From Candidatus Thalassarchaeaceae archaeon (GTDB lineage: Archaea > Thermoplasmatota > Poseidoniia > Poseidoniales > Thalassarchaeaceae), in NCBI GenBank assembly GCA_030747675.1, contig JASLKH010000074.1, positions 1 through 33,408 on the forward strand: a stretch of DNA of 33,408 bases, given 5' to 3'. The translations under genes and the position numbers were made by a program. Position 1 is the first letter of the stretch. The number at the start of each line of letters is the position of its first letter. This document shows positions 733 through 31,224 of this stretch, piece by piece. The notes below the pieces were generated by a model. The model was not told where the DNA came from, did no database searches, and saw nothing but the letters and a program-made list of their open reading frames with translations.

Positions 733-837
733 TATTTGACCGGACGTAGCATTATCTCATGAATCCTGTTATGTTTTGAGATGATAGGCGCGTGCTCCTT
801 GCCAAAGGGACAAAAGGCGAACCTTGCTTCGCGTAGT

Positions 838-2946
838 ATGAGCGACGTGAATGAATCCGCCGAAGGTGAGTTTCCTCCTGCGTCGCCAGACAGTTTGATT
901 CAGGAACTCGATGTAGATGGTTCTGGTTGGATTGAGTCAGATGAATTTGAAGAACAGAATCAAATTGATAAAGAATTACAGAAAATTTTTGATCGTAGAA
1001 ATGGTGCTGTGAGGCGTTTCCCCAGAGGTATTGAAGATTATGTTTTAATTTCTGGATTACTGTATGGCCTGCTGTTTTTCGGAACAATGTTTGCCATGAG
1101 TGCAGGAATGTTGGGCAATGGCGTTGAAATGGATGAAACACTTTCTGCAACGGTTCTTGATTTCGATGAATGTGACGATCCAGGCAACAATGTTTGGGTT
1201 AATGCGTGGATAGACGATTCTCATAACGTTCGTTTGGATGCATACAATGTACCAGATGAAGCTGGATTTACCAACATTCGATGGAAATTCTCTGATGGAT
1301 CTAATTGGATTACAGAAGAAAACTCCACTACGATAAAAATCGATTTTTCGGAATGGGATGATAGTGAATATGAGTTACTAGCCGAGTTCAATAATCATAC
1401 ATCACTTGAGAACTCTCAAAACTATTCAAATACATATACTACTTTGGCAAATAAAACTGTGAAATTAGAAGTTAGTTCATCCAGCCCAAGTATGGGATGG
1501 TTGCCATGGGTTTCTAATGCCCCGGTCAAAGATGCAGAGGTACTCAATGACGGACCTCGGGCTTGCTGGACTACATCAGAACTTGGGGGTTGGTCATGGA
1601 TTTTGATGGGGGCAGAATGGGGTGGTGGTCGTGAAACAGCAATGTTAGCGGGCGGCTCTGCAGGTGTCCCTCCATGGTGGATGGCCTTTATTTCACTATC
1701 AATGTCTATCTTTTTCTTGTTTGTTCAATACCCATTGATGTACCGGTTTTACCATAGAGAGGAAGATGATGAATTGTCCGACCCTCAACTAGCTCGTTTA
1801 ATTGAGCGGTCTGTGAAAAGTTGTGAGAAGAAATTGAGAATAGAGGTTGATTGGGATTCTTATCGTTATCAGCAACGAGATATTAGCATCGATGTCCTTG
1901 TTCCTTACAATACGACCATGGAGACATTCATTGACTCTAGAGACATACGTGGAGAAATTGTCACTAAAGTTCTAGATGAATTGAAGTCATATGGTGTGAT
2001 GAAGCCCCTTCATTTACAAGCTAATGCTGGCGATTCCAGACAAGGGATATTTGAATCTCTAAGAAAAGGACTTGACCCTTCTAAATTAGAGATTGAAAGT
2101 GGAGGTAACTACAATTCTTTAGTCGAGGACTATTCTAAATTCTTTGAGTCAGTAGGAACACTAGCAGGAGTAGAAGATCGTGCTATTGATGCAATCAAGG
2201 ATTGGTTCAAAGATTCAAACCTAATTGATAGGGGAAGTAAAGTTTACTCTGATGATTTACACCTTTACGTGCGTGTAATATACAAACCCAAGCAGAGATT
2301 AGCTTTCTTCCGATTCAAACAATCATATGTTGATGTTGAAGCTCAATTAGAGAATTTCATGTTACGTGAAATGAAGGGCCATATGGCCGAAAGAGAACTT
2401 GTTGTTAGTGCTAGAAATGAAGTTGGGACCCTTGCAGATAGATCAGCAGCAGGACGTGTTGAAGTATCCAAAGGCGGAGAGCATCAGGTATTGGTTGCTA
2501 AGCAAGAAGGATTAGTTGGCACAATTCTTCAAAATCAAGTTATGGGTGATGTATTATCAACGGTCGAATTTGTTGCCCATGAGAAAAGAGATTTCATCAA
2601 TAAATGGGGATTTTGGGGATTAATTGTTTTCGTTTGGATTCCATTTATGGCATCAGGAGTGCTTGTTGGTGCAATGCTAGGTTTGCTTAGCCGGATGAAG
2701 TTCATACGCGTTTTGATTGCCTGTGCGATAGGTGGTTTTGCAGCATCTATAACGTGGGCCTATACAGCGAGGGGAATCATCGAAGTTATGGAAAAATATC
2801 ATGCAGAGGCCTTGATACCTTGGATGATTGCAATTGTAGTAATTTTTGCTTTGGTCCATCTAAGAACAAGCAAAAGACGGCGAAGAGAAGCACTTTTCAA
2901 GGAAACTCAACAATTTTTCAGTGGTGTTTCTGAAACTGAATCCTAA
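838..2946 (+). CDS. Membrane protein: N-terminal EF-hand, extracellular domain and split small multi-drug export (PF06695/COG2426-like) domain
   Basis: Likely ATG at 838 (702 aa; ORF open from 781). EF loop DVDGSGWIESDE (910-945). C-terminal KWGFWGLIVFVWIPFMASGVLVGAMLG matches the PF06695 C-half; GGGRETAMLAGGSAGVPPWW resembles its N-half. Confidence 0.7.
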   Translation: MSDVNESAEGEFPPASPDSLIQELDVDGSGWIESDEFEEQNQIDKELQKIFDRRNGAVRRFPRGIEDYVLISGLLYGLLFFGTMFAMSAGMLGNGVEMDETLSATVLDFDECDDPGNNVWVNAWIDDSHNVRLDAYNVPDEAGFTNIRWKFSDGSNWITEENSTTIKIDFSEWDDSEYELLAEFNNHTSLENSQNYSNTYTTLANKTVKLEVSSSSPSMGWLPWVSNAPVKDAEVLNDGPRACWTTSELGGWSWILMGAEWGGGRETAMLAGGSAGVPPWWMAFISLSMSIFFLFVQYPLMYRFYHREEDDELSDPQLARLIERSVKSCEKKLRIEVDWDSYRYQQRDISIDVLVPYNTTMETFIDSRDIRGEIVTKVLDELKSYGVMKPLHLQANAGDSRQGIFESLRKGLDPSKLEIESGGNYNSLVEDYSKFFESVGTLAGVEDRAIDAIKDWFKDSNLIDRGSKVYSDDLHLYVRVIYKPKQRLAFFRFKQSYVDVEAQLENFMLREMKGHMAERELVVSARNEVGTLADRSAAGRVEVSKGGEHQVLVAKQEGLVGTILQNQVMGDVLSTVEFVAHEKRDFINKWGFWGLIVFVWIPFMASGVLVGAMLGLLSRMKFIRVLIACAIGGFAASITWAYTARGIIEVMEKYHAEALIPWMIAIVVIFALVHLRTSKRRRREALFKETQQFFSGVSETES

Positions 2947-2970
2947 ATATCAATCATCGTATCAGACTTG

Positions 2971-3000
2971 CGAAGGTAGTATAAGTCGCCTTTTACTACC
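2971..3000 (+). promoter_or_regulatory. Putative TATA box (TATAAG, 2980-2985) within an inverted repeat upstream of the ABC operon
   Basis: TATAAG lies about 22-27 nt before ATG 3007, consistent with a leaderless transcript; arms GGTAGTA (2975-2981) / TACTACC (2994-3000). Confidence 0.4.
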
Positions 3001-3006
3001 GATTTT

Positions 3007-3828
3007 ATGGCACTAATTTCGTTGCAGAATGTGAGTCGTTTTTATCACTCCGCAGGTGAAGAAGTTCGTGCCTTGGATGGAGTGAATCTCGAAATAGAAG
3101 AAGGTGAAGTAGTAATGTTACTTGGCCCTTCAGGATCTGGTAAAACAACTCTACTAAACATCATTTCAGCACTTGATAGCCCCACTAGTGGAGATTACAA
3201 GTTTGGGGGAAATGATGTCCCATCTGCATCCCATTCTCGCAAATTATTGCAAGCTTGGAAACGCTCTAAAGAACTTGAGAAAATGGCCAAATTCCGTCGA
3301 GAGAACATTGGATATATATTTCAATTTTTCAATTTATTAGGAGATTTGACAGTTTTAGAAAACGTCCTCTTATCTCAAGAGATCCATGGTGGCCGAAACC
3401 GGGACAGAGCTCTTGAAGTATTGGAGATGGTTGGTCTTGAAGGCCTTGAGAATAGATTCCCTTCAGAGTTATCTGGAGGTCAACAACAGAGGGTTGCTAT
3501 TGCAAGAAGTATAGCAAAATCCCCCCGGATATTATTGGGTGATGAACCCACAGGTAATCTTGATTCGAAAACCACTGAACAAGTGATGAGAGTTCTTGTG
3601 GACGCATGCCGTAAGGAAAAAATTACAGCGATTATTGTAACTCATGATTCAAGTTTGACTAAATTCGCCACACGTGTTATTGAGTTGGATTCTGGGAAAT
3701 TGGTTAGTGATGAATCCAAAGCACAAACAATTCTCGATACCACTTTGGATACTGCCAAGATGGTAGGTGGTGCAATCAAAAATGTGGTTGTAAATGCTCT
3801 TGAAAAGAGTAGAGTCTCTGAAGAATAG
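3007..3828 (+). CDS. ABC transporter ATP-binding protein, LolD/MacB family
   Basis: Walker A GPSGSGKT, Q-loop IFQFFNL, signature LSGGQQQR, Walker B ILLGDEPTGNLD, H-loop VTHD. Confidence 0.95.
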   Translation: MALISLQNVSRFYHSAGEEVRALDGVNLEIEEGEVVMLLGPSGSGKTTLLNIISALDSPTSGDYKFGGNDVPSASHSRKLLQAWKRSKELEKMAKFRRENIGYIFQFFNLLGDLTVLENVLLSQEIHGGRNRDRALEVLEMVGLEGLENRFPSELSGGQQQRVAIARSIAKSPRILLGDEPTGNLDSKTTEQVMRVLVDACRKEKITAIIVTHDSSLTKFATRVIELDSGKLVSDESKAQTILDTTLDTAKMVGGAIKNVVVNALEKSRVSEE

Positions 3829-3837
3829 GTGCTTGAA

Positions 3838-6273
3838 ATGTGGCTTTTAGTCAAGCGATTAATCCGTAATCAGATACGGAGTGGTATTCTTTCAGTTGCT
3901 TTCCTAGCCCTTGTTTTATTGTCAACATCTGTTTGTGTGATGATGTGGGAACACACGCGGAATTCAGAGTTGGTTTATGATGAGTTTTATGATGAAACAA
4001 ATCTTGCTGACATTGTAGTCGAAACATTGCCTGGTTGGAATTATAGTTCAACAAATTTAATTGATGCATGTCATATGTCAAGAGATAATTTTGTAGAAAC
4101 AGATTTGTCAGTCAATGCCTGTGAAACACGATATACCCATCGTGAGGAATTCATAACTCCGGGTGGTGACATTTCTATGATTGCATATGGCTTAGAACAG
4201 GATGCTTCCGTAAGTATTCCTTGGTTCGACACAGATTGGGGAGAATTGGCGGATGAGCCAGGGGAAGTGGTCATCGATCGTCATATGCAAAAGCAATTAG
4301 AAATTGACATAGGTGATGAAGTCATTCTGATTTTGAATGGAAAAGAAGTGGAAATGACGGTAACTGGTATTGCCAACCACCCTCATCATATATTCTATGC
4401 AGAAGATGGAGATATATTGATGATTGAAGGAACGTTGGCAATCGTATATCTTCCAATTGATCAACTTCTCAGTGAATTAAATCTCAGTGGAAATGAGCGA
4501 AATTCGATGTTAATCGATGTATCGGGGACTCCTGAATATGATCTTTTGGATACTACTTCTAATGAGGGCGAACTCTTAGACACATTGCGAGATGACCTGG
4601 AAAAATCGTTAGAAATTCAAGGGATTGAAAGAGTTACAATTACTGACCGCAGCTCAATTTGGAGTGTAGAAATAATGCGACAAGATTTGGAAGGAAATAA
4701 AGTATTCACTCCAATAATTTTAGTAATACTTGCAGGAATTTCAGCATTAGTTATTAGCATTAGTTTAGAACGCCTAGTCCGCCGTCAAAGTCGTGAAATT
4801 GCAGTATTGAGGGCCGAAGGAATTGATTCTAAATCATTGTTAATTTCTTATCTTTCAATTCCCGTTTTCTACGGTGTAATTGGTGGTATTTCAGGAATAT
4901 TCCTTGGCCAATATTTATCTGAATTGATGACTACTTGGTATTTCGATATTATTGCAGGGATGCCAGTTGTAACTACTCGACATTATGCTGACATTGCTTG
5001 GTATGTACTTACAATCGTATTGTTCATACTGGTTTTGTTTGGAATGTGGCCTGCCATACAAGCTGTCCGTCTGTCTCCTTTGGATGTGATGCGCAAACAA
5101 TCGGGGGCTCGTCCAAATTCCTTTGTCGCAATGATTACTGCTAAATTACCTCCAATAGCGGGATTAGGTTTTAGATCAACATTCCGAAATCCGCGTCGTC
5201 TATTAATGACAGTTTTCGCTCTTGGAATTGCCTTGATTTTAGTTAGTGGAATGACTATGATTACAGAGGGAATGAAACAATGGATAGATGAAACAAATCA
5301 AGCGGAAACTTGGGATTACAAGATATATTGCAATGTTTTAGATCATGATGATTTGGGTAATTGGGTTCAAGAAAATACTGATCGGTATGAGTCACAATGG
5401 GCTTTAGAAGTTCCAGCTAATGCTTCTGGTGATACACGAATTTTGACAATGAATGCAGTGCAAGGATTCAGTACCGATGGAATTTCAACAATGCATAAAT
5501 CAAGGCTTGTGGATGGAAGACTACCTTCTATTGGAGCAGAACCACCTGAGGCTGTGATTGATATCGGCGCTCATGAATATCTAGATGATTGGGATATTGG
5601 CGACAATGTAGTCATTAAAGTCGGTGTTACTGAATTGGAATTCCAAGTTGTAGGAATTGTCGATGAAGCATCTCGATCGATATGGGTTCACCATACAGAT
5701 GTCATGGGAGAATTAGGTTCGATAGGTGAATCACTTCACAATGTGCTTTACTTGCGTGAAAATAGTGAATTCAATGAAAATCCATTGGATTTGAATGGAG
5801 TGGAAAGTGTAATTTCAATGACTAACAAGGAAGAAATGGTTGAAGGTATGGAACAAAGTTGGGATTCACAAAAGAAATATTTTCTTGCATTCCAACTTGT
5901 TGGAGCAATTGTTGCATTTATTGTACTATTGAATACATTACTCATTAATTTAACAGAACATGATTCGGAATTTGCGACTTTAAGGATTCTTGGAGCATCT
6001 TCACCAAAACTGATGAAAGTCATGATGTTTGAACATCTTGCAATTGGAATTCTGGGTGGTATTCTTGGGTCTATTTGCTCCATTTTGGCTGCAGAGGCCA
6101 TGGGGGCCGGTTTCAGTAATTGGGCATTCACATTGAATGTCTCGATTCAGTGGGATATCGCTTTCTATACTGCATTAGGTGTTGTAATTGCAAGTCTTTC
6201 AGTAGTACCATTTGGAATATTTAGGGTTCGCGGTATGGACCTTGTTGAAAAGGCAAAAGCATACTCGGAGTGA
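3838..6273 (+). CDS. ABC transporter permease, FtsX/MacB/LolCE-like, two-repeat architecture
   Basis: Two repeats of TM + large extracellular domain + 3 TM; motifs RQSREIAVLRAEG and EFATLRILGAS. AGGTG RBS (3827-3831) lies 6 nt before ATG 3838 (ORF track starts at GTG 3829). Confidence 0.9.
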   Translation: MWLLVKRLIRNQIRSGILSVAFLALVLLSTSVCVMMWEHTRNSELVYDEFYDETNLADIVVETLPGWNYSSTNLIDACHMSRDNFVETDLSVNACETRYTHREEFITPGGDISMIAYGLEQDASVSIPWFDTDWGELADEPGEVVIDRHMQKQLEIDIGDEVILILNGKEVEMTVTGIANHPHHIFYAEDGDILMIEGTLAIVYLPIDQLLSELNLSGNERNSMLIDVSGTPEYDLLDTTSNEGELLDTLRDDLEKSLEIQGIERVTITDRSSIWSVEIMRQDLEGNKVFTPIILVILAGISALVISISLERLVRRQSREIAVLRAEGIDSKSLLISYLSIPVFYGVIGGISGIFLGQYLSELMTTWYFDIIAGMPVVTTRHYADIAWYVLTIVLFILVLFGMWPAIQAVRLSPLDVMRKQSGARPNSFVAMITAKLPPIAGLGFRSTFRNPRRLLMTVFALGIALILVSGMTMITEGMKQWIDETNQAETWDYKIYCNVLDHDDLGNWVQENTDRYESQWALEVPANASGDTRILTMNAVQGFSTDGISTMHKSRLVDGRLPSIGAEPPEAVIDIGAHEYLDDWDIGDNVVIKVGVTELEFQVVGIVDEASRSIWVHHTDVMGELGSIGESLHNVLYLRENSEFNENPLDLNGVESVISMTNKEEMVEGMEQSWDSQKKYFLAFQLVGAIVAFIVLLNTLLINLTEHDSEFATLRILGASSPKLMKVMMFEHLAIGILGGILGSICSILAAEAMGAGFSNWAFTLNVSIQWDIAFYTALGVVIASLSVVPFGIFRVRGMDLVEKAKAYSE

Positions 6274-18562: not shown

Positions 18563-19531
18563 TTACAAGTCTTGTAATGGAGACATGGCTCTACGTGCCA
18601 AAACACGTAGCATTTTTCTTCTGTATGACGGGGGGAAGTACGTGTTACTTACTGGCTTTACAGCCTTGCGAATTGCTTCTGAAAGTGCTACAACACTTTC
18701 CTTCCCATTCCATTCCAACAATGCTTCCATAGCGAGTTTGGAGTGGTCACCAGGGATACTTTCACATCCAGTTGTAGCAATACGCAATTCCGATATTCTC
18801 CCCCCTTTCAATTTCCATGCTGCAGCAACTCCTGCTTCAGGGAAATCCCACGTTTCCCGCAACCTCAATTTTTGATAGCCACCTACCCATTCATTTACAT
18901 CATCTGGTAGGGTAATATGAGTGACCATTTCACCTTTTTCCAAAACATTTCGAGTCATTCCATCTAACTTGAAAAATTCAGAAAAAGGCATCGCGCGTGC
19001 ACCTGCTGCACCTGCAAGGTGAATTGTAGCATTTAGAGCGATAAAAGCAGCAGCAAGGTCGGCTTGATAGGTGGCAACACATAATGTATTTTGGTTTGGA
19101 ACAACTCGACAATCGGCGTTGGTATCACAGTCACATTTGTGACACCAATCTATACTGCGCCTCCATTCTTCAGTTTGATTGTACCAGTAGCACCGAGTAT
19201 CTAAGCAGATATTCCCTCCAACTGTGGCAGATCTACGAATCATTACACTTGCGATTGTGGCAGCAGTCTCTCGAAGAAGTGGGTGTATAATCTCGGATTC
19301 AACTAAGTCTTGGATCCGAACCATTGCTCCTACAATTGTGGTGGATAGAGTATTTAATTCCTGAACACCAGCTAAGGAAATAACATCTGATTTTGGATTT
19401 AATTTCCATTTGTAATTTGGTAGTAGATCAGTGCCCCCGGAAATCCAATCGAAGTCGTCCAATTCAGATGCCAATGTCAATGCTTGAGAGAGATTTGAGG
19501 GGGTGTGTAAAGTGAAGGGGGGCATCCGCAT
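18563..19531 (-). CDS. hcrB: Xanthine-dehydrogenase-family FAD subunit, 4-hydroxybenzoyl-CoA reductase beta-like, with Cys-rich Fe-S insert
   Basis: ISGGTDLLPN, RRSATVGGNIC, insert DTRCYWYNQTEEWRRSIDWCHKCDCDTNADCRVVPNQNTLCVATY, YQKLRLR. GAGGTGA RBS favours ATG 19531, overlapping the hcrA stop. Confidence 0.85.
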   Translation of the reverse strand: MRMPPFTLHTPSNLSQALTLASELDDFDWISGGTDLLPNYKWKLNPKSDVISLAGVQELNTLSTTIVGAMVRIQDLVESEIIHPLLRETAATIASVMIRRSATVGGNICLDTRCYWYNQTEEWRRSIDWCHKCDCDTNADCRVVPNQNTLCVATYQADLAAAFIALNATIHLAGAAGARAMPFSEFFKLDGMTRNVLEKGEMVTHITLPDDVNEWVGGYQKLRLRETWDFPEAGVAAAWKLKGGRISELRIATTGCESIPGDHSKLAMEALLEWNGKESVVALSEAIRKAVKPVSNTYFPPSYRRKMLRVLARRAMSPLQDL

Positions 19532-22335
19532 CACGAATCACCTCTGTGTCGGCGCTCAATGTGCGACCAAGCCTTCGCCGCTCGTTTCTTTGGGTCTGCC
19601 AAATCTTCAGCCGTGGGTGTTACAGCCTCTCTCCATCCCTTTTTTTGTTCGGACATGGGCACATCAGGGTCAAACCCAAAGAGAACACCATTGACATAAG
19701 AGGTTCGATCTTCTTGAATATCTCTCAGATGGTCACGAATCGCATGCTCTTCTGCACGCCCCGTTAATTTTTCTTGTAATGGTCCAGGCTCAAACCTTGG
19801 TACTGGTAAATCAAGAGGGTCTTCGACACCTAATTTCTTACATTGTTTCTCGATTTTTTTGTGAAGTCGGTCAGGTGTCACAGGCAATTCATCAATTCGA
19901 ATACCAATTGCATCGTATATTGCGTTACAAACAGCCGGCAAGATTGGTAGCAACGGCCCCTCGCCAGCTTCCTTTGCACCAAATGGGCCTTCGGGGTCAT
20001 TACTTTCAACAATGATTGGAACGACATCGGGCATTTCGTGAACACTCATGATTTTGTAATCAAGTAAATCAGGATTCATCAGATTGCCTCCTCTTCCATA
20101 TTTCATTTCTTCAGAAAGGACTTGCCCCATGCCCATGTGGCATGAGCCAATGATCTGTCCTTTTACTGCTAGGGGATTGAGTGCCTTTCCGCAATCATGT
20201 GCGGCCCAAGCGTTCACAACCTTGACGAAACCAGTTTCGACATCAACTTCAACTTCTGCAACATATGCTGAGAATGAATATGCTGGGGCTAATCCAGCAG
20301 CGGCCCCTTTGTGGATTCCACCCATAGGGGGCGTTCGGTAAGCCCCTGATGCAATCAGTGACCCCACATCAGCCTGTGCTTTGTGCACCGCTTCTAACCA
20401 AGAAACTCCAATGGCAGGGTCATGCTTGTAGTAAATTCTTCGATCACCAATGACTAACACATCGGGGTGATAACCCGTAATTTCCCAAGCGGCCTTCATC
20501 ACTTTGTCTCTTAATTCACAAGCCGCGCGAATCGCCGCATTACAATTCATGAAGGTCACACGGCTGGAATATGATCCCAAATCGACAGGTGATGTATCAC
20601 TTTCTTTACTTCGAATCCGTATCATATCTAATGGTAAAGCCAGAACTTCTGAAACTGCTTGTGCCACCGCTGTATCGCTCCCTTGCCCAATATCTGCTGC
20701 ACCAGTATGGACTGTTACTCCTCCATCCATATCACATTGTAAATGTACAGTAGCGTGGGGGAAATTTTCGGGATCCCAATGAATAGGTAACCCTGATCCT
20801 GAAATGAAGAACCCACATCCAACTCCAATTCCTCGCCCCAGAGGTAAGTTTCGGAATTTTTCATTCCAACCAGATTGCTCTTTTACTTTCGCTAGGCACT
20901 CTCGCATTCCCGTGCTTGTTATTCTAAATCCTGTTATTGTTCGACTGTGTGGTGGTAATAAATTTGCGAGTCGGAAAGTCATCGGGTCGACATTCATTTG
21001 CTCAGAAACAGCATCAATTCCAACTTCTACTGCGCATCGGCTGTTCACCGCACCATGGCCTCGCATTGCACCGCTTGCAGGTTTGTTTGTCCATACTCTG
21101 GCTCCTGTATAATTGAAACCTCCGATTTCATATGGTGCTGTATGCAAAACACCATTGTAATAGGTTGTTACATGCCCAAATGAAGCAAACGCTCCCCCAT
21201 CGATAAGTGCATCAGTTTCGATACCAGAGATACGCCCTTCATCATCTGCAAATACCCCCATTTGGATTCGTGATGGATGCCTTCCTCGATTAATCCAATA
21301 CACTTCTTCCCTGTCGAAATTAATTCGAACAGGCCGTCCGCATTTCCGAGCTAGAATCGCTGCGCACATTTCATGTGGAAATGGGTCCGATTTACCGCCA
21401 AATCCTCCTCCCACAAAGGTCCGATGGACATTGATTTGATGCATTGGAATATCTAATACAGCAGACAATCCTCTGTGGAGATAATGGGGGACTTGTTGAG
21501 GGGTCCAAACTGTAAGCCGTCCTGATGGGTCCCAATGAGCAACTACCGCATGTGGTTCAGTAAATCCATGATGTAGACCTGCAGTTTCCCAATCTGCTTC
21601 ATGTTTGAATGGCGCAGAACCCATTGAATCGAGATCTCCAAACTGTTGGAAAACACGTTTCTGAACATTCGATTCACCAATGTGATATTTCCCGCGATCG
21701 TGGATTGGATGTTCTGAATCGTTCAAACCATCTTCCATGTCATGTATACTTGGCAGAATTTCATATTCAACTGAGATAGCATTCATTGCTTCAATTGCAG
21801 TTGCTTCATCAATTGCACAAACACACGCCACTAAGTCTCCAACATGCCTAACCTTGTCTTGAGCCATCGCATGTTCATCTTTAGTTACAGGAAGAACACC
21901 GAATTTGTTTACAGAATCCTTTCCAGTTGCCACCGCAAAAACCCCATCCATTGCTTCAGCAACAGATATGTCGATTGATTTAATCTCAGCATAATGATGT
22001 GGAGAACGTAGTATCTTCCCTATTAGTTCGCCAGGTAACCTGATGTCATCGCCATATTGTGCTTGCCCAGTCATCTTCCAGTTAGAATCAACCAAAGGAA
22101 CGGGTTTACCAATTGTGGTACCTGTGATATGTTTGTCATGGACATGGGGTCCTCGTGGTTGTTTTTTCCATCCACCAACCGATTCAGGAACATAATCCAA
22201 ATCTTGGAGTTTTGAATGAGGTTCAGAACCACCTGATCCTGGGACGCCGAAGTCTTGTTGCCCTGCAATCCGTTTCCCATCAGTGCGTTTCTTGTCCTTC
22301 CCTTTACCGGGCGCTTGTCGATATCCTTTGCCCAT
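19531..22335 (-). CDS. hcrA: Xanthine-dehydrogenase-family molybdopterin subunit, 4-hydroxybenzoyl-CoA reductase alpha-like
   Basis: KMTGQAQYGDD, QQVP, VGGGFGGK, GAMRGHG, FPHATV...TGAADIGQGSDT, GSYSSRVTFM, GPFGAKEAGEG; 934 aa with N- and C-terminal extensions. Confidence 0.85.
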   Translation of the reverse strand: MGKGYRQAPGKGKDKKRTDGKRIAGQQDFGVPGSGGSEPHSKLQDLDYVPESVGGWKKQPRGPHVHDKHITGTTIGKPVPLVDSNWKMTGQAQYGDDIRLPGELIGKILRSPHHYAEIKSIDISVAEAMDGVFAVATGKDSVNKFGVLPVTKDEHAMAQDKVRHVGDLVACVCAIDEATAIEAMNAISVEYEILPSIHDMEDGLNDSEHPIHDRGKYHIGESNVQKRVFQQFGDLDSMGSAPFKHEADWETAGLHHGFTEPHAVVAHWDPSGRLTVWTPQQVPHYLHRGLSAVLDIPMHQINVHRTFVGGGFGGKSDPFPHEMCAAILARKCGRPVRINFDREEVYWINRGRHPSRIQMGVFADDEGRISGIETDALIDGGAFASFGHVTTYYNGVLHTAPYEIGGFNYTGARVWTNKPASGAMRGHGAVNSRCAVEVGIDAVSEQMNVDPMTFRLANLLPPHSRTITGFRITSTGMRECLAKVKEQSGWNEKFRNLPLGRGIGVGCGFFISGSGLPIHWDPENFPHATVHLQCDMDGGVTVHTGAADIGQGSDTAVAQAVSEVLALPLDMIRIRSKESDTSPVDLGSYSSRVTFMNCNAAIRAACELRDKVMKAAWEITGYHPDVLVIGDRRIYYKHDPAIGVSWLEAVHKAQADVGSLIASGAYRTPPMGGIHKGAAAGLAPAYSFSAYVAEVEVDVETGFVKVVNAWAAHDCGKALNPLAVKGQIIGSCHMGMGQVLSEEMKYGRGGNLMNPDLLDYKIMSVHEMPDVVPIIVESNDPEGPFGAKEAGEGPLLPILPAVCNAIYDAIGIRIDELPVTPDRLHKKIEKQCKKLGVEDPLDLPVPRFEPGPLQEKLTGRAEEHAIRDHLRDIQEDRTSYVNGVLFGFDPDVPMSEQKKGWREAVTPTAEDLADPKKRAAKAWSHIERRHRGDS

Positions 22336-22344
22336 TCAATCTCC

Positions 22345-22944
22345 TCATTTCGAGCTACCAGGTGGCAACGAGGGTTCATCGGGGCCCAATGGGTGTGGAT
22401 CTGATTTTGGATTAGTTGGATCTGGAGAAATTGTCCCACTTTGTTTCATTTCAGCAGCCATTTCGACAGCATCAACAATTTGTTGGTAACCAGTACATCT
22501 GCAAAGGTTACCCTCTATGGCGCACTTGATTTCATCACGTGTTGGCATTGGATTTACTTCTAGAAGTGCTGAACTAACAATCAAGAATCCAGGTGTACAG
22601 AATCCGCATTGACTTCCACCTGCTTCAGCAAAGCATTTCTGAATTGGATTGAGGTGATGCCCATCTGCTAAGCCCTCTACTGTGGTAATTGCAGCTCCAT
22701 CATGCTCTTTGGCAAGACAAAGGCAACTCAATCTGGGTTCACCATTCACCAAAACAGCACAACATCCACATGTCCCCATGTCGCAACCACGCTTGACACC
22801 TAATGTTCCAACTTGGTCCCTAAGGACATCGAGGAGGATAGCATTACTTTCAATCAGATGCTCTTGTTCGACTCCGTTCACATTTACATTCCAAGGAACT
22901 TTTTGTGCCCCCGGAAGCATCGGAACTCGGATGTGAATGCTCAT
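22345..22944 (-). CDS. hcrC: Xanthine-dehydrogenase-family 2x[2Fe-2S] subunit, 4-hydroxybenzoyl-CoA reductase gamma-like
   Basis: GCDMGTCGCC...SC and QCGFCTPG...GNLCRCTGY cluster motifs; likely start ATG 22944; first gene of a C-A-B order. Confidence 0.9.
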   Translation of the reverse strand: MSIHIRVPMLPGAQKVPWNVNVNGVEQEHLIESNAILLDVLRDQVGTLGVKRGCDMGTCGCCAVLVNGEPRLSCLCLAKEHDGAAITTVEGLADGHHLNPIQKCFAEAGGSQCGFCTPGFLIVSSALLEVNPMPTRDEIKCAIEGNLCRCTGYQQIVDAVEMAAEMKQSGTISPDPTNPKSDPHPLGPDEPSLPPGSSK

Positions 22945-22984
22945 GCGACCACCCCCACCGAATCCATAGAGCCCTTTGATGATT

Positions 22985-22997
22985 CGCCCGTAGGGCG
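22985..22997 (+). other. Intergenic hairpin CGCCC-GTA-GGGCG
   Basis: Read directly; in the divergent spacer between hcrC and the CD36-like gene. Confidence 0.6.
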
Positions 22998-23048
22998 GCT
23001 GCATTCGTTAGCGGATTACTTATGCCCTGTGCCCTGTGGTGGGGTGTC

Positions 23049-25784
23049 ATGAACACTAAGGTAATCGTGATGGCAGTTGTTGGGCTGATGCTTATTGGAA
23101 CCAATATGGCAGTAGTATCTCCTATGGTAATGTCGAATACTGAAGCCGCTCTTGAGGATGCCACAGTTATGACTGATGATACATGGGAAGACGATAGTTG
23201 GCTAAGCTCGACACTTGAACGAGTATTTTTTGCATGGGATTTGACAAATCCTAATGATGCTAAGGCTGACTCTGATGGCAATGGTGCAGAGGATTTAGGA
23301 AACGCTGTATTTGAGCGAAATGGCCCTTTTATTTACAATGTTACAGCAAAACGTGAAGTAATTTCACACAACGAAGATCAAGGTACATTGACGTATTCTG
23401 AATTCAATGAGTATGAATGGTGTGCAGAATGCACTTGGTCCGATGAGAATGGCACTGAGCATGCATCGGTGTCAGGTACAACGCCCATCACTAACATCAA
23501 CATACTATATGATACTCAAAGAATTGGTGCTTTAGGATCAGTGATTGCTTCAGGACCAGATATCGTGAAGGGCACATTCACTAAGAAAATGTTAGAAATC
23601 GATATGGCTGAGCGTGCACCTAGTATTTGGACTGTTGAAGAATTAAATTCAGATCTTTCAGTATATGCATCCAACGAAACTCTTGTTGGCAATGGTCCCC
23701 AACAGTATCGTGACTTAGGCGCAAAGATACACGTTCTCACTCAAAACAGCCGTTACGATGAAGAAAATTTGACAACATTCATGATGACTGCATTCAATGA
23801 ATCTATCCTGAATCATATCTTTGACAATGTCACCGATAATTCAACTGGATTGTGTATCGCCTTAACTTGCAACCTTGGCCCGATGCTCATCAAGAGAATG
23901 GGGGCCCCAGATACACAAAACTCTCTTGCCCGTGCCGAATTATATGGCTATACTGTATTCAATAATGATACCACAGTCAATCAATCTGCTACAATAATGG
24001 CTGATGAAGTCGTGTACGATGCCATAAATACACGTTATACTCAAGCCGGATATTTTTCCTCTGATTTACGCTCAGAATCTGATGCTAATTTGAAGAGTAG
24101 AATGGTAGAGATGGCAGGAATATCTGAAAATTTCGATGAAACCAAAATGCAGAATTTATTATTTGGAATGAATGGCAATGCTCCTGTTGGGATTCTGGTT
24201 TGCGACTCAAATGGATTCCTTTGTGGAGTTACCAATCTACTTCTTCTCGCAATAGATTTCAATTTGCCAGAAATCATGTCGCAATATGGACTTGGATTAA
24301 CCTCCTTGGAAAAAGTTGCAGGCGATTGGGTGAGTAAATGGCAGTTAGCTGAACGAAATTATGAGATGATTCTTTCAGATGGTTCAGGTTTTATTCATGC
24401 AGATGAATGGGTCTTAGAGGCGTTTGGTTCTAAAGACCCAGTCGATGGGAAATGTATTCCGTTTGGATTGAACATTGGTGTTGCAAGTTTGAATGGTTTG
24501 TGTTTGTGGGAATCCACCTATAATCCAGGTAATCCAGTTGATTTAGATCCAGCACAAACACATAACATATTGTATGGTGACTACGGATTGACCACTGACT
24601 TCGCTACAGATTTCTTGTACGGAGAAATTAGTGGGATGTCAGTACCTATGAATGAGCAACTTCAACCTGAAATTGGAGGCACTCAACACGCTTGGGACGA
24701 TGCATTTGTGGCCGGTTTATATGATATTGATTTGAATGGAGCAATGGCTCTTCGTTGGATGCTTTTCGATACACTTTTCAATGATAATATTGGTGGCATA
24801 ATTGAGAGCCAATATGGTGTTGAACCTGTTCTTACAATGGAAGTTAACAATTGGCTTTTGGGATGGGAAGATCCTCTTGTTGGCTGGGCATCTTTAGAGG
24901 ATAATGCGACTTACTATGGTTCGGATGGAATTGTTAATGACGGTGCAAAATCAATTTACACGGTTTATACTGGTGCAAAAGAAGGGTTACCAGGGCAGTT
25001 GTTGTTTGAATGGGATGATAACGACACTCCTGAAAACATGTCTGATGACGTCCCTCTTTGTGATTTCAAACCGGCTCCTGAAACGTCGCCTTGTTTCCTT
25101 TCATGGCGCTCTTCTGCTCGAGATGATGCAACCTATGGGCTACTAGGTACAGTTGATCAGGCAAATGTTGTTGGTACTGTATTCCCTGCAGGTGAATCTG
25201 CTCGAATGAGTTTAGCAGGATATGCAGTTGCAGAATCGGTTGTTGTTGGAAAGGATTCAATTGAAGGTATTGATACTTACAAGCATTCGATTAATGTTCC
25301 ACCGTTGGAGAACCCAATTCAGGCCAAGTTGCTTGGTCAAGAATCACTTCTCGATGTGTTTCCCAATGCCCTTCCTGTGTATTTCGGAGGTGAAGTTGAG
25401 ATGCAGGTTGAACCAAGTGTGAATGCAGTGCTTGGCCTTGAAATGAATTCGTATTTCTTTATTGACACACGTGGAATTAGTCGAAGTATCGGATTGACTG
25501 CTCCTACAGAAGGGGATTTACAACCAGTATTCCAAATTTCAATCGCAAAATCAATTGGAGATGACCCAGATGATGTTGATGCGTTCAAGGACAAGGTGAT
25601 TCATAATCAAAGACCCTATGCATATTGGACCAATTTCGATACAGGTGCAGATGCAATGTTTATCGATCAGGTTACGTTTTTAATTTGGCTAATCGCTGAC
25701 TTACTGCTACTTGCTGCATTGGTTATGGCAGTTCGTGGCGATTCTGATTTAGAAGAGCCTTGGACTGAAACAGAAGAAGAATGA
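23049..25784 (+). CDS. CD36/scavenger receptor class B (LIMP-2)-like protein with N- and C-terminal TM helices
   Basis: Motif chain W..FFAWDLTNP..ERNGPFIY..TLTYSEFNEYEW..ITNIN near the N-terminus; NVVGTVF, GIDTYK and MQVEPS near the C-terminus; 10 Cys in 5 local pairs; many N-x-S/T sequons; start ATG 23049. Confidence 0.7.
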   Translation: MNTKVIVMAVVGLMLIGTNMAVVSPMVMSNTEAALEDATVMTDDTWEDDSWLSSTLERVFFAWDLTNPNDAKADSDGNGAEDLGNAVFERNGPFIYNVTAKREVISHNEDQGTLTYSEFNEYEWCAECTWSDENGTEHASVSGTTPITNINILYDTQRIGALGSVIASGPDIVKGTFTKKMLEIDMAERAPSIWTVEELNSDLSVYASNETLVGNGPQQYRDLGAKIHVLTQNSRYDEENLTTFMMTAFNESILNHIFDNVTDNSTGLCIALTCNLGPMLIKRMGAPDTQNSLARAELYGYTVFNNDTTVNQSATIMADEVVYDAINTRYTQAGYFSSDLRSESDANLKSRMVEMAGISENFDETKMQNLLFGMNGNAPVGILVCDSNGFLCGVTNLLLLAIDFNLPEIMSQYGLGLTSLEKVAGDWVSKWQLAERNYEMILSDGSGFIHADEWVLEAFGSKDPVDGKCIPFGLNIGVASLNGLCLWESTYNPGNPVDLDPAQTHNILYGDYGLTTDFATDFLYGEISGMSVPMNEQLQPEIGGTQHAWDDAFVAGLYDIDLNGAMALRWMLFDTLFNDNIGGIIESQYGVEPVLTMEVNNWLLGWEDPLVGWASLEDNATYYGSDGIVNDGAKSIYTVYTGAKEGLPGQLLFEWDDNDTPENMSDDVPLCDFKPAPETSPCFLSWRSSARDDATYGLLGTVDQANVVGTVFPAGESARMSLAGYAVAESVVVGKDSIEGIDTYKHSINVPPLENPIQAKLLGQESLLDVFPNALPVYFGGEVEMQVEPSVNAVLGLEMNSYFFIDTRGISRSIGLTAPTEGDLQPVFQISIAKSIGDDPDDVDAFKDKVIHNQRPYAYWTNFDTGADAMFIDQVTFLIWLIADLLLLAALVMAVRGDSDLEEPWTETEEE

Positions 25785-26531: not shown

Positions 26532-29500
26532 ATGAGTGATGATGAATCTGGTCGAGGGAGATTTCGAAATATTGTAATTCCAACTCAGACCAAGAAATCA
26601 AATGAAGCCTATATTCCGGGTTTTGCAGTTAATTCAATCACCGAATTACAACATCAATCAAACGCTCAATTCGGGATGATTATTTCTCTTGGTGGAGGAG
26701 TCATTGCACTTTTACTTGGAATATGGACCTTCATGGTCACAGATGCTGATGCGGACATTACATTTTTGTGGCTTTCTTTAGGCTCAATCGTTGCAGTTGC
26801 AGTAACATTTTCTTTAGTTGAAATTCAATATCGTCGACAAGGTATTCTTTCTATAATGCATGATTACTTACTTTCATTCGGACTTCTTTTCGGCATGTTG
26901 GGTAGTTTTTGGATCAGTCGCTATGGTCTTTTCTTTATTTGTGGGCATGGTGCAGATTCGTCAGGCTTCTGCCAAGGAGATACCGGGGCAGAAGATTGGC
27001 TTCCTGGTGCATGGGGTATCGTTGCTCAATCGAGTTTTGTGGCAGTCATTGCAGTTTTGTCTTGGTATTATACAAAGAGAGTAAATGGTTCGACCCTCCC
27101 TCGTTTGGTTCTTGTTCTAGCACCTTTAGCGATACTGATTATTGGAGCCGATGTATGGGTTGCTTGGGCTGAAGGGGATGCAGGCTTACCCCTTGTAATC
27201 GGTGTACTTTTGATGACCACGCTGTCGATGAGTTTGGCATCGATGAGCGATAGGAGCCCCCTCTTTCTTACTGCGGCCGCAATTTCATCCATTGCACCAT
27301 TTATTTACGAGATGAATTTGGATGGCCCAGCAGGTTCAGGTCTCTCGATGCTGACTATGATTGTCATAGTTCAAGGTATATTTGCAGCAAGCCCAGGTCT
27401 CTCTCGAACAATGATTGAGAAGGGTTCTGTCGGTTTAGTTGGCATTGTTATCTTAGCTCAATGGGTTAGTGGTAGTATTGAGGCAGATTTCATTCTGATT
27501 GAGCCAATTCAAAATAGTTGGATAACTTTGAATTTGATGCTCTGGCTTTCATTGCTTGTTGGCTATTTTTGGCCAGTACATATGCGCAGAGTCCCTTCAA
27601 TGCCCATTGGCTTAGGATTTGCTTTGTTACTCATACCAACTCCGGGAAGTATGCTTGCTTGGTGTTTAGCAATATTATCATTCATTTACATGCTGACTGT
27701 ACCTCAAACACGTCGATGGGTTGCAGATTGGACATTTATCGCAATGATGTTTGCATGGTGGGCAGGTGGATGGATATCATCTTTTGAGTCCGACATTGCG
27801 TCATTAGATCCAATTTTTATAGCAATCCCACCACTTGCATTGACAATAACTGGATATTTCGCAACGCGTGAAAATAGGTTATCATCCAACGCATTAAATA
27901 TTGGAATAATCATGATTATTCTATCGAATGAATTACTTTCAGGAACGGAACCTTGGTTACCACTAGGTGTTGCAACATCTCTTCTCCTCATGGTCTGGGT
28001 TCAAGCCCGAGAAGCAGAATCAATAATCGCTGCAGGAGACGCTGCTAGATTAGAAGCAACAGGGAGAATGGCACTTGCATTAGTTGGAATATTGGTTTTA
28101 GAACTAGCAAACAGACTGACAATCCCTTGGATTGATGTCAATGGCATACATATTGAGGCCTTGATATTGGCCACTGCATTGTATGCAATAGGAAGAGGCT
28201 TGCGGGGTGTTGAAGTAGACATTGGTCACTTACTTGCGAAGATTAGTGCAAGGACTACAAGTATACCCGAATGGGACCCCAATACAGCATCTTGGGTTTA
28301 TCGTCCATCGGTGATTTCTGAGAAAATGTCTACAGTTCGATTTGGGCCAGCGGCACGACTTGGATTAGCCGGCCCGCTCTTGCTTTTTTCTTTGGCCCTG
28401 TCAAGAAGTGGCGACCCTTTCACTGATCACTATCTGGTGGTTCTATTGGCATTACCAATCACCCTTCTTCTAAGAGAAATATTGCTAGAATTACCGAACG
28501 ATGACAAGACTCGAGCCGCAGGTATCTGGACACTTTTCTTAATTGCCTTACCAAGTTCTTTGGCTTTGCACTTCACAGCAGACAGTTCCTTAGATGAGAA
28601 TACAATTCCAGCATCTCTATTGCTTTTTGATTCGTTATTATTGATGGGCCCCATTCTTGGAGATGTTATGCTGCATCGCCGTGGACTTGAAGGCGAGAAA
28701 GACATGAAGGCAGGATCAATTGCATTGTTAGGATTACTCGCACTCGCAATTCTTGACACAAGTGGCGGTTTCCTTGCTCTACCGTTGTTTGCAATTGTTT
28801 TGATGCGTGGATTCATGCACCGCCAGGGACCTGCAATTCATTGGTTAGGATTCGCATGGATATTCTGGATTTTAACAATGGATTTGGAAAGTACAAGTTC
28901 ACTAATTGCACTTGTACCCGAAGTGACGGTGTTGGTCGAAACATCATTCTTTGATTTACCACGATGGGCAGGTCTTGGCCTTATTGCTATTGGATTACCT
29001 TCTCTCTATGGAGCGATACAGGATATTCGAGCGACTGCTAAGGGCCTTGAAGTTGATGAGCACTCTCATCCAATATTAGCCCCAACCATGTTCATTATTG
29101 CAGGAGTGTTCTTATTAATTCCCGATGCACATTGGCTGTCAGTAGGCATTATTATTTTGGCTTCAATAGGGGCATGGTTAGTAGGAAAAATGGGATGGTT
29201 TTGGATTGCTAGTCCGTTGCTTTTCATCAGTTTGATTTACGCAGGAGAAGTTGAATGGGGAGGCGCTATTGGAGAAACTATACGTTTTGCTGCTGCAGGT
29301 ACATTCGCATTTAACGCAATCCTTTTCATCACAAATTCACGCGAACAATTTTTCAAAAATTCAGATGATTCATGGGACGAGATTCGACAAGGAAATCTAG
29401 TTGATGTTATTACAATTGGTGCGTTTATTGCTAGCCTTATCGCAGATGATTACTTCTTTGGCATTGCATTGTTGCTGGGTGCACTTTTGATGACAAAATA

Positions 29501-30395
29501 TGCACATGGGCGTAGGTGGTCGAATTTCCTTGTATTCTGGTTACCACTTGCACACAGTTGGGTTATCTATCGTATTCTTGCAGATCCTTTACCAGAAGCC
29601 AATGTTGAGATTGCAGGCCTGGTTCTATTGGTTGAATCAATTCTTCTAACATGGTCCTCATGGACGATGTATGATTTTGGTTGGGATGATTTTTCTGATG
29701 ATGAAGTATTGGAACACGCTAACACATCAGGTTGGCTTGGTGCTGTATTATTTATTCCAGCAGCTTGGTTTACTGTAATTGATATGCCAATGTGGATGTT
29801 TGGAGGTATGCTTTGTGTGCATTCTGCAGGTCAAATGGCACTAGGATTCCAGCGAAATGAAAGTTGGAGGCGAATATATTCTTTAATCGGAGTTGCAGTT
29901 GGCTTCTTGATTATTGCAATTGATATTGAAAATGGTATCATGCGTGGTGTGATGCTAGTATTGGCCAGCTTAACGATGATGATGCAAGGTATTCTCTACA
30001 TGACGGAAGCAGGAATAAAAATGGCTGGAACAGGTGAGGGTGACGTTGTTGATGAAGTGGAAGAAGCTGAACCAAAAACCCGTAAGAAATTGGACCTCAC
30101 CTCGTTGTTGTCAATACCTGATCCCGTTCTAGATACGAAGGATGACGTCGAAGAAGGAGATGTGGACCCTTCGGAAGAAATTGAATTATCACTTCCTAGA
30201 GCGAAACCAGTTTCGGCAGAACCTTTGTTGGAAGAAAGAATCCGAACTGAGCACTACGATCTCGAATTACCAGTTGATGTTCGAGATAGAATTGGAACTG
30301 TAATTACCTCTACACCTCACGAAGGATTCCATCCAGTGATACGATGGGACCAATGGGGACAAGTCATACTGGATTGGGAGCCAATAAGCAAATAA
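26532..30395 (+). CDS. Very large polytopic membrane protein (about 35-39 hydrophobic segments), DUF2339-like C-terminal TM region
   Basis: 1287-aa ORF, mostly short hydrophobic helices, then an acidic linker and a small soluble C-terminal domain. Confidence 0.75.
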   Translation: MSDDESGRGRFRNIVIPTQTKKSNEAYIPGFAVNSITELQHQSNAQFGMIISLGGGVIALLLGIWTFMVTDADADITFLWLSLGSIVAVAVTFSLVEIQYRRQGILSIMHDYLLSFGLLFGMLGSFWISRYGLFFICGHGADSSGFCQGDTGAEDWLPGAWGIVAQSSFVAVIAVLSWYYTKRVNGSTLPRLVLVLAPLAILIIGADVWVAWAEGDAGLPLVIGVLLMTTLSMSLASMSDRSPLFLTAAAISSIAPFIYEMNLDGPAGSGLSMLTMIVIVQGIFAASPGLSRTMIEKGSVGLVGIVILAQWVSGSIEADFILIEPIQNSWITLNLMLWLSLLVGYFWPVHMRRVPSMPIGLGFALLLIPTPGSMLAWCLAILSFIYMLTVPQTRRWVADWTFIAMMFAWWAGGWISSFESDIASLDPIFIAIPPLALTITGYFATRENRLSSNALNIGIIMIILSNELLSGTEPWLPLGVATSLLLMVWVQAREAESIIAAGDAARLEATGRMALALVGILVLELANRLTIPWIDVNGIHIEALILATALYAIGRGLRGVEVDIGHLLAKISARTTSIPEWDPNTASWVYRPSVISEKMSTVRFGPAARLGLAGPLLLFSLALSRSGDPFTDHYLVVLLALPITLLLREILLELPNDDKTRAAGIWTLFLIALPSSLALHFTADSSLDENTIPASLLLFDSLLLMGPILGDVMLHRRGLEGEKDMKAGSIALLGLLALAILDTSGGFLALPLFAIVLMRGFMHRQGPAIHWLGFAWIFWILTMDLESTSSLIALVPEVTVLVETSFFDLPRWAGLGLIAIGLPSLYGAIQDIRATAKGLEVDEHSHPILAPTMFIIAGVFLLIPDAHWLSVGIIILASIGAWLVGKMGWFWIASPLLFISLIYAGEVEWGGAIGETIRFAAAGTFAFNAILFITNSREQFFKNSDDSWDEIRQGNLVDVITIGAFIASLIADDYFFGIALLLGALLMTKYAHGRRWSNFLVFWLPLAHSWVIYRILADPLPEANVEIAGLVLLVESILLTWSSWTMYDFGWDDFSDDEVLEHANTSGWLGAVLFIPAAWFTVIDMPMWMFGGMLCVHSAGQMALGFQRNESWRRIYSLIGVAVGFLIIAIDIENGIMRGVMLVLASLTMMMQGILYMTEAGIKMAGTGEGDVVDEVEEAEPKTRKKLDLTSLLSIPDPVLDTKDDVEEGDVDPSEEIELSLPRAKPVSAEPLLEERIRTEHYDLELPVDVRDRIGTVITSTPHEGFHPVIRWDQWGQVILDWEPISK

Positions 30396-30396
30396 T

Positions 30397-31224
30397 TCAT
30401 TGTCTCCAACTCGAAGAATATGAATCAACGCCTTTCAAATCAGCGATAATTTCGGCAAGTACTGCTATGGCAATTTCTTGAGGAGATTCGGCTCCAATAT
30501 TAATGCCGATTGGACAAATGACAGAATCAATTGCCTTTTGTGGAATTCCAGAATCCAATGCAGATTTCTCGAATGCGAGCCACTTTGATTTAGAACCGAT
30601 ACATCCAATTCTCGGCCTTTGCTCACATCTTTGTAGTAATCCAATCAGAAGAGTTTGATCTATTTCCCAATCATGACCCAATAGCAGCACATGTGAAAAA
30701 CGGCTTAGTGATTCAGTTGTTTCACGCGACAAGAATTCATTTGGTTGCGCTGCAACACATTCCTCTGCGTCAGGCCACAAGTCTTCATTAGCATATTCTG
30801 AACGCGTATCAAGTACAGAAAAATTCCAACCTAGAGAAGCACTTGCATCTGCAATTGCCTGAGCACAATGCCCCCCTCCTGCCAAAAGAACGTGAGGCAT
30901 TGGATGGATGATTTCCATAGCCACGGTTACTATTCCACCGCACAAGCTGTTCAATGGAGTCCCAATTTTTCCTTTTGACTCACGTTGGAGTTGATATGTT
31001 TCAACACGTCCTTCGCCAGTGCTCAAAATCTCACGAAGATGATTCAGAACTTTTGCTTCGAGACCGGCTCCACCAACTGTGCCAAACATCTCCGCACTGG
31101 TGAGCGCCATATGTGCACCAGGCTTTCCTGGAACGCTACCCTGCGCATTAATCACACTTGCTAGAGCAACAGTTTCTCCTTCTTGAAGGCGTCCTGTAAC
31201 CCATTCTAGAACTCGCTGTGTCAC
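30397..31224 (-). CDS. xdhC: XdhC/CoxI-family molybdenum-cofactor insertion chaperone
   Basis: ALASVINAQGSVPGKPGA, GTVGGAGLE, LCGG, LLAGGGHCA, IGCIGSKSK and CPIGINIGAESPQEIAIAVLAEI motifs. Confidence 0.92.
   Translation of the reverse strand: MTQRVLEWVTGRLQEGETVALASVINAQGSVPGKPGAHMALTSAEMFGTVGGAGLEAKVLNHLREILSTGEGRVETYQLQRESKGKIGTPLNSLCGGIVTVAMEIIHPMPHVLLAGGGHCAQAIADASASLGWNFSVLDTRSEYANEDLWPDAEECVAAQPNEFLSRETTESLSRFSHVLLLGHDWEIDQTLLIGLLQRCEQRPRIGCIGSKSKWLAFEKSALDSGIPQKAIDSVICPIGINIGAESPQEIAIAVLAEIIADLKGVDSYSSSWRQ

Follow-up and report, generated by a model that had tools for sequence, protein, structure and literature searches.

The tunnel mechanism of the CD36 family is established from structures (4F7B, 5LGD and 5UPH). 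The latest survey of class B scavenger receptors (SR-Bs) covers Eukarya only, places the origin of the family at the last eukaryotic common ancestor, adopts as its working definition a CD36 ectodomain between two membrane helices, and reports non-metazoan ectodomains of 413-2294 amino acids (aa) (Boohar et al. 2023, PMC10715195). In the eukaryotic SR-Bs the membrane-distal apex is the ligand-binding site, and it is there that the protist proteins expand by lineage (PMC10715195), while the actinobacterial LmcA/PgfA proteins have been published as structural relatives (PMC8972800, PMC9678360). Here, we describe a gene at 23049..25784 (+ strand) of a 33,408-nucleotide stretch of Candidatus Thalassarchaeaceae archaeon, order Poseidoniales, marine Group II (GenBank assembly GCA_030747675.1, contig JASLKH010000074.1, positions 1 to 33,408 of the forward strand; hereafter the window). 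Its product is a genuine, very divergent member of the CD36/SR-B superfamily, and the gene is a native, deep-branching archaeal member of this class B scavenger receptor family. We found no literature joining CD36 with the Poseidoniales, and none joining it with the Asgard archaea in a biological sense, the co-mentions being unrelated uses of the words. An initial annotation, made from the DNA letters alone, had called the family one regarded as eukaryotic. This is right for the survey, which covers eukaryotes, but not altogether, since the LmcA/PgfA relatives are published and one homologue at least already bears the NCBI name 'CD36 family protein [Candidatus Thalassarchaeum sp.]', with the Pfam match precomputed in public databases.

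The window protein (P0001) matches the Pfam CD36 model PF01130 with 35.5 bits, against a gathering cut-off of 26.5, over aa 12-132 (profile positions 3-118), and the same model is matched by all 55 aligned archaeal sequences (49 from Poseidoniales and 6 from Asgard archaea) at E <= 1e-3. The direct match is confined to the N-terminal quarter, and the remainder of the protein is linked to the family via profiles: Pfam returned no family for the pieces aa 130-450, 400-700 and 650-911, NCBIfam gave no model match, and a single-sequence phmmer search of the PDB gave nothing, CD36 and LIMP-2 being reached by profile only. When a profile of 20 homologues was run against all PDB sequences, six chains were obtained at E < 10, all of them CD36 or LIMP-2, and the matches form two collinear stretches, with profile positions 23-108 corresponding to CD36 26-113 and positions 547-648 to LIMP-2 126-215, with about 430 residues between them. 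The second stretch aligns WLfGWeDP with LLWGYkDe. The motifs FFAWDLTNP, ERNGPFIY and WLLGWEDP align column by column with those of Asgard and eukaryotic proteins, and the conserved barrel-strand motifs of the SR-B family, both N-terminal and central, are present.

The predicted structure leads to the same family. A first AlphaFold model, from a 20-sequence alignment, had a predicted local distance difference test (pLDDT) of 70, with residues 616-711 below 50 and a poor C-terminal barrel, and its Foldseek template modelling (TM) scores were 0.35-0.37. A second model, from the 55-sequence alignment, reached a pLDDT of 83.5 and a predicted TM score of 0.75, and presents in order a helix (residues 3-39), strands (53-150), a helical region (154-589), a beta-rich region (594-835) and a final helix (867-896). 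The top 12 PDB matches of this model in Foldseek are LIMP-2 or CD36 (E 5e-5 to 7e-3), followed by LmcA of M. smegmatis, and its ectodomain contains the family's asymmetric beta-barrel. By hydropathy there are two strong hydrophobic segments, aa 3-28 and 869-899, around an outer domain of ~840 aa, and one marginal segment, aa 382-400, which lies inside the folded head. The two terminal membrane helices that typify SR-Bs are thus recovered by hydropathy and by both models, in agreement with the initial annotation, which had placed them around an ectodomain of ~850 aa. Its assignment to the CD36 family with a large insert is likewise supported, by PF01130, by the PDB profile, and by the predicted structure and its Foldseek matches. 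Having a CD36 ectodomain between two membrane helices, the protein belongs to the SR-B family in the sense of Boohar et al., and the models predict that it is anchored by one membrane helix at each end, with a CD36-type asymmetric barrel outside. The parts of the gene and protein are the following (window coordinates).

23038..23046, + strand: Shine-Dalgarno-like GGTGGGGTG, upstream of the ATG at 23049, from reading of the sequence; putative function
23049..25784, + strand: CD36-family coding sequence, 911 aa plus stop, from the list of open reading frames (ORFs) and translation
23055..23132, + strand: N-terminal membrane helix, aa 3-28 (hydropathy; helix 3-39 in both models)
23181..23504, + strand: CD36 beta-barrel segment 1, aa 45-152, with FFAWDLTNP, ERNGPFIY, TLTY and ITNIN (Pfam CD36 positions 3-118; CD36 residues 26-113; model strands 53-150)
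23505..24824, + strand: all-helical head of ~440 aa, aa 153-592 (model helices 154-589), at the apex of the CD36 fold
24825..25643, + strand: CD36 beta-barrel segment 2, aa 593-865, with WLLGWEDP, N619-A-T, VGTVF, GIDTYK and PVYFG..VEP (profile match to LIMP-2 126-215; structural alignment to model residue 850)
25653..25745, + strand: C-terminal membrane helix, aa 869-899 (hydropathy; model helix 867-896)
25746..25781, + strand: short acidic C-terminal tail, aa 900-911 (sequence; low pLDDT)

From the hairpin topology, the C-terminal tail is probably cytoplasmic. The only long ORF at the site is the frame 23022..25784 (+), in which an alternative in-frame ATG at 23022 would give nine extra residues, and databases hold both lengths; the start at 23049 agrees with the N-termini of the homologues (alignment consensus MNxKA...). 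A promoter and terminator scan gave chance level only.

Between the two barrel segments lies the helical head (aa 153-592), which in the 55-sequence model has block-mean pLDDT values of 79-96, mostly above 84. Across the 49-sequence alignment of the Poseidoniales family its length is 397-497 aa, and it has many residues that are invariant in the order, including the C269-x4-C274 pair. The final helices of the head align by profile to CD36 residues 141-187, and in the predicted structure the head stands in place of the small three-helix apex of the eukaryotic receptors. Structure searches with the whole model gave nothing above background as a known fold for the head, which was not searched alone, and the ESM-Atlas feature scores for it were below 0.8. 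These 440 residues make up a conserved domain without recognised relatives, placed exactly at the ligand-binding site of the family.

The ordered motifs listed in the initial annotation were all found, in the order given there, starting at aa 60 (FFAWDLTNP), 89 (ERNGPFIY), 113 (TLTY), 122 (YEW), 147 (ITNIN), 708 (VGTVF), 740 (GIDTYK) and 787 (VEP), and so were the ten cysteines of its five local pairs, at 125/128, 269/274, 385/392, 469/485 and 671/682. In the 49 Poseidoniales homologues the two members of a pair are nearly always present or absent together (26/26, 44/44, 25/25, 4/4 and 20/18, respectively), and this joint gain and loss fits disulfides in the outer domain. The pairs are specific to the Poseidoniales, the aligned Asgard sequences being without them. 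Two other features did not hold up. The DSDGNG stretch (aa 74-79), which had been noted as a Ca-type loop, lies in an 8-residue loop of low model confidence that is found in none of 16 other homologues checked (one row in three of the 49-row alignment), and is lineage-specific rather than a conserved Ca site. The N-x-S/T sequons, described as many, number 12 against 7.9 +/- 2.6 in shuffled sequences (p about 0.08), which is within chance, and 11 of the 12 are unconserved. The single conserved one, N619-A-T (window 24903-24911, in SLE.NATY), is present in all 49 Poseidoniales homologues and, like the paired cysteines, agrees with an extracellular domain; it may serve as a structural motif or be glycosylated at a fixed position.

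The distribution of the gene is that of a native component of the order. The family profile matches 133 of 151 sampled Poseidoniales genomes (53 of the 58 of high quality), in both large families, and none of 8 genomes of the class's sister family or of ~230 other Thermoplasmatota genomes. A word-indexed protein search gave 550 relatives and, among the 120 listed, every named one is from marine Thermoplasmatota. Genomes of the window's genus carry a second, divergently transcribed paralogue (G049:C3:23854-26424, -, beside 26580-29120, +; L002-L005), whereas the window's 78%-complete assembly has one copy only, the second being neither adjacent nor found elsewhere in it. The literature knows the family almost solely from eukaryotes (PMC10715195), and this would speak for a gene that is eukaryotic contamination or was recently acquired from a marine eukaryote. 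However, such an origin is highly improbable, and both forms of it are already refuted. Apart from its presence throughout the order, the gene lies within 33 kb that carry archaeal-type genes on both sides, namely 3-dehydroquinate synthase II (DHQS II), an HTH_10 regulator, XdhC and a molybdo-flavoenzyme operon; it has no introns, and its GC content (0.41) is within the range of the flanks (0.405-0.463). The order xanthine dehydrogenase (XDH) operon / CD36 / HTH_10 / ~1300-aa membrane protein / XdhC / ArsP_2 is found again in another genus, in which the CD36 protein is only 42% identical. The archaeal neighbours, the kept synteny and the ordinary GC exclude contamination, which the initial annotation had already judged unlikely.

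Among the 212 matches of an exhaustive profile search were also full-length proteins of ~700-840 aa with PF01130 scores of 216-329 bits, two of them named Promethearchaeota. In sampled Asgard genomes PF01130 was found above its cut-off in 20 of 301, the named sources including Lokiarchaeota, Hodarchaeota and Hermodarchaeota. The Asgard match is always split into an N-terminal and a C-terminal part, which indicates that these proteins too carry an insert where the Poseidoniales head sits. When the two families were compared with hhalign, the probability was 99.1% (E 9.6e-19, 651 columns) for the whole alignments, 98.5% (E 3.5e-15) for the two N-terminal parts and 96.4% (E 1.3e-9) for the two C-terminal parts, but only 0.5% for the Poseidoniales head against the Asgard insert, with all off-diagonal controls below 2%. 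As the barrels match and the heads do not, the two archaeal heads are either independent expansions or have diverged beyond recognition. One Promethearchaeota contig (L007 2863-11141) carries two tandem CD36-family genes, of 815 and 900 aa, followed by a gene for an Arf/Ras-like small GTPase.

In order to relate these groups, a tree was computed with IQ-TREE under the posterior mean site frequency (PMSF) model from 349 barrel-only columns of 40 sequences, with two short archaeal CD36/PorA-like proteins as root. Its branches are long and its root is assumed, and the eukaryotes in it are dictyostelids, one Diplonema and one transcriptome sequence, a thin sampling due to the few eukaryotes reached by the word-based search. 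All Poseidoniales proteins fall into one clade (100/99), which has a long stem, whereas the Asgard clade (99/98) joins the available eukaryotes in a clade (99/98) that excludes the Poseidoniales. This topology argues against a recent transfer from Asgard archaea or from the sampled eukaryotes; an ancient transfer from a eukaryotic lineage outside this sample may have taken place. The relevance to the origin of the family that the initial annotation had proposed holds only in part: the Poseidoniales proteins branch off deeply as a clade apart, and it is the Asgard proteins that sit with the eukaryotes. The short archaeal proteins P0200 and P0230 (522-534 aa) match both the CD36 and the PorA/DUF3068 models, and look like a bridge between these two Pfam families; the surroundings of the P0200 gene include another PorA-family gene, a gene for an archaeal pilin and a trio of HMG-CoA synthase, thiolase and DUF35 genes.

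We compared 24 gene neighbourhoods, the window and 23 further loci, on metagenome contigs or in other genomes. Lipid-related neighbours recur among the relatives in the window's family. A PlsC-type acyltransferase gene (PF01553) adjoins the CD36 gene in L023 and L024; in L030 a small ORF stands between the two, and in L040 the distance is two genes. A PlsC-like gene is present on another contig of the window's own genome. Four loci share a co-directional set made up of a gene without known function, TctA, CD36, a 1520-aa LTD-PhoX-PLDc_2 protein, Glycos_transf_3 and Acyl_transf_3, and in L018, L025, L027 and L028 the gene of the 1520-aa protein is directly downstream of the CD36 gene and co-directional with it. 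In three further loci CD36 is followed by Acyl_transf_3 and then by an M60-like peptidase. The 1520-aa protein itself has two lamin-tail domains, a PhoX phosphatase domain and two PLD-like domains (L018 10840-15408; L027 3298-7875).

In the window the immediate neighbours are the xanthine dehydrogenase-family molybdo-flavoenzyme operon, the HTH_10 regulator and a polytopic membrane protein. The operon (18563-23004, -) encodes the flavoprotein, molybdopterin and 2Fe-2S subunits of a xanthine-dehydrogenase/CO-dehydrogenase-type enzyme, and the CD36, HTH_10 and membrane protein genes split these subunits from the XdhC maturation gene (30397-31224, -), an interruption kept in L020. The membrane protein (26532-30395, +) has 1287 aa and ~25 hydrophobic segments, belongs to no Pfam or NCBIfam family, and has a 51%-identical counterpart in the same slot of the other genus (L020), after HTH_10 and before XdhC; considered as a possible relative of the 1520-aa PLD/PhoX protein, it proved unrelated. 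Farther away (781-6273, +), a 721-aa membrane protein precedes an ATP-binding cassette (ABC) ATPase and an FtsX/MacB-type permease, beside aromatic amino-acid genes. In L022 (8001-13311) the slot before the ABC/FtsX pair is occupied by a divergent 730-aa CD36-family paralogue, P0136, whose gene overlaps the start of the ABC gene; in sequence, the 721-aa protein of the window and P0136 are unrelated.

Regarding function, we consider it on balance probable, by homology and from the lipid neighbours of relatives, that the protein is a lipid conduit used for scavenging. We favour this proposal on the grounds of the tunnel expected from homology, the recurrent lipid neighbours and the published lipid metabolism of the order. 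A hydrophobic channel through the barrel would pass lipophilic molecules, with fatty acids, lysolipids and other lipid parts as candidate cargo, between the head and the outer membrane face without exposure to water, as in CD36, SR-BI and LIMP-2. The head would be the site for docking and selection of a lipid source, such as particles, vesicles or algal debris, or could alternatively dock the products of neighbouring secreted lipases or phosphodiesterases. Traffic would be inward, and the exogenous lipid scavenged would feed beta-oxidation or be used by PlsC-type enzymes in acylation; this is also the direction implied by the lipid or particle uptake receptor of the initial annotation, and we favour it only as a candidate route, suggested by homology and by the neighbours of some relatives. 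The Poseidoniales are predicted degraders of lipids and fatty acids, without glycerol-1-phosphate dehydrogenase (G1PDH) and with fatty-acid synthesis genes and PlsC homologues (PMC6962369), and the Lokiarchaeota carry PlsC/PlsY (PMC6737245). That both CD36-bearing archaeal groups have been singled out for acyl-lipid genes is suggestive, with two lineages only. Several observations weigh against lipid scavenging. There are no lipid genes among the immediate neighbours in the window, no neighbour is common to the whole order among the 24 neighbourhoods, and no recognisable lipid-binding family was found in the head with Pfam or the ESM-Atlas features. Furthermore, P0136 shares an operon with an ABC transporter of the MacB/FtsX type, whose members are known rather for export or extraction, and a mostly single-copy gene that is near-universal in the Poseidoniales also fits a housekeeping role in the envelope.

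The same fold could indeed serve in building the envelope, moving endogenous lipids, lipid-linked glycans or lipid-anchored proteins from the membrane out to the surface layer, a role like that proposed for LmcA/PgfA in the trafficking of envelope lipids and lipoglycans (PMC9678360, PMC8972800). The near-core status of the gene would agree with this, as would the overlap of P0136 with the start of the ABC_tran and FtsX/MacB-type pair, although the ABC link is found in only one of the 24 neighbourhoods. Acyl_transf_3, a membrane acyltransferase family that modifies surface glycans, is also among the recurrent neighbours, but the PLD/PhoX neighbour and the predicted lipid catabolism suit scavenging better. 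The protein also belongs to PF01130 and not to PorA/DUF3068, having no match to PF11271 even at E 10. We regard outward transport as the main rival, possible but rather unlikely. A decidedly unlikely explanation is that the protein is a receptor or adhesin for non-lipid partners, such as particles, the surfaces of algae, a secreted enzyme or a virus for which it is the point of entry, with the head as a protein- or glycan-binding module and the barrel as its stalk. The apex of LIMP-2 binds beta-glucocerebrosidase and enteroviruses, and that of CD36 binds PfEMP1 (PDB 9fjf, 5lgd), and the head is large, conserved and order-specific. The apex expansions of protists have been interpreted as changes of ligand specificity (PMC10715195). 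Nevertheless, conservation is as high in the barrel segments as in the head, the signature motifs of the barrel are those of the lipid-conducting relatives, no partner gene is consistently adjacent in the 24 neighbourhoods, and the many invariant residues of the head are not what one would expect of a virus receptor, which should vary rapidly.

No other archaea are as abundant in the surface ocean as the Poseidoniales, which are still uncultured. How they acquire lipids and fatty acids and which lipids they build are among their open questions (PMC6962369), and a near-universal CD36-family surface protein provides a concrete, clonable candidate for the acquisition step. By analogy with its homologues, the lipid conduit that we favour would make this gene product a candidate route for lipid movement across the Poseidoniales cell surface. 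The presence of genuine members in two archaeal lineages pushes the history of the family back, and the Asgard branch bears directly on the gene content of the archaeal ancestor of eukaryotes. A bolder proposal, which we think quite unlikely, is that the CD36 lipid-tunnel fold arose long ago in prokaryotes, with the Poseidoniales, Asgard and short CD36/PorA-like proteins as separate archaeal branches, and that in the Poseidoniales, with no G1PDH but with fatty-acid and PlsC-type genes, it is the main gateway for the uptake or placement of acyl lipids. If this were true, a eukaryote-type lipid receptor would be tied to the question of the Poseidoniales membrane and to the lipid divide, and the Poseidoniales head would be a new kind of docking domain for lipid sources.

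Among the known systems, the vertebrate receptors CD36, LIMP-2/SCARB2 and SR-BI (PF01130; 5LGD, 4F7B, 4Q4B, 4TW0 and 5UPH) share with the archaeal protein the hairpin topology and the signature motifs (F/Y)xxWNLTNP, E..GP(F/Y)x(Y/F) and WL(F/W)..DP, with 15% identity in structural alignment. Their ectodomain has ~400 aa, in contrast to ~840 aa in the archaeal protein, which is larger because the helical head of ~440 aa takes the place of the small three-helix apex. The archaeal protein lacks the metazoan disulfides, having Cys pairs of its own, and is strongly acidic (net charge -94), as are its relatives. The short three-helix apex, the ectodomain disulfides and the ~400-aa ectodomain that define the metazoan SR-B subgroup are all lacking, and the 440-aa head, the Poseidoniales-specific Cys pairs and the separate clade place the protein outside that subgroup.

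LmcA/PgfA (MSMEG_0317, Rv0227c; PF11271 PorA, formerly DUF3068; 7N3V, 7SHW) provide the prokaryotic parallel of a membrane-anchored, elongated beta-barrel with internal cavities and a proposed role in lipid trafficking, but they are much smaller and headless, belong to another Pfam family and act in the context of a bacterial envelope. The Asgard CD36 proteins (e.g. P0249 and P0266, described by database entries only) are also archaeal, with 780-920 aa, two membrane anchors and an insert at the matching site. They differ in their PF01130 scores of 170-330 bits, compared to about 35 for the window protein, in an insert of 303-378 aa, which is shorter than the Poseidoniales head and has no detectable similarity to it, in their patchy occurrence (20 of 301 genomes), and in grouping with the eukaryotes in the tree. 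The architecture shares its plan with that of the protist SR-Bs (e.g. Dictyostelium LmpA and the oomycete and ciliate proteins), in which, as here, a conserved barrel carries a lineage-specific, mostly helical expansion of the apex (PMC10715195), although the archaeal sequence is far more divergent and forms a clade of its own.

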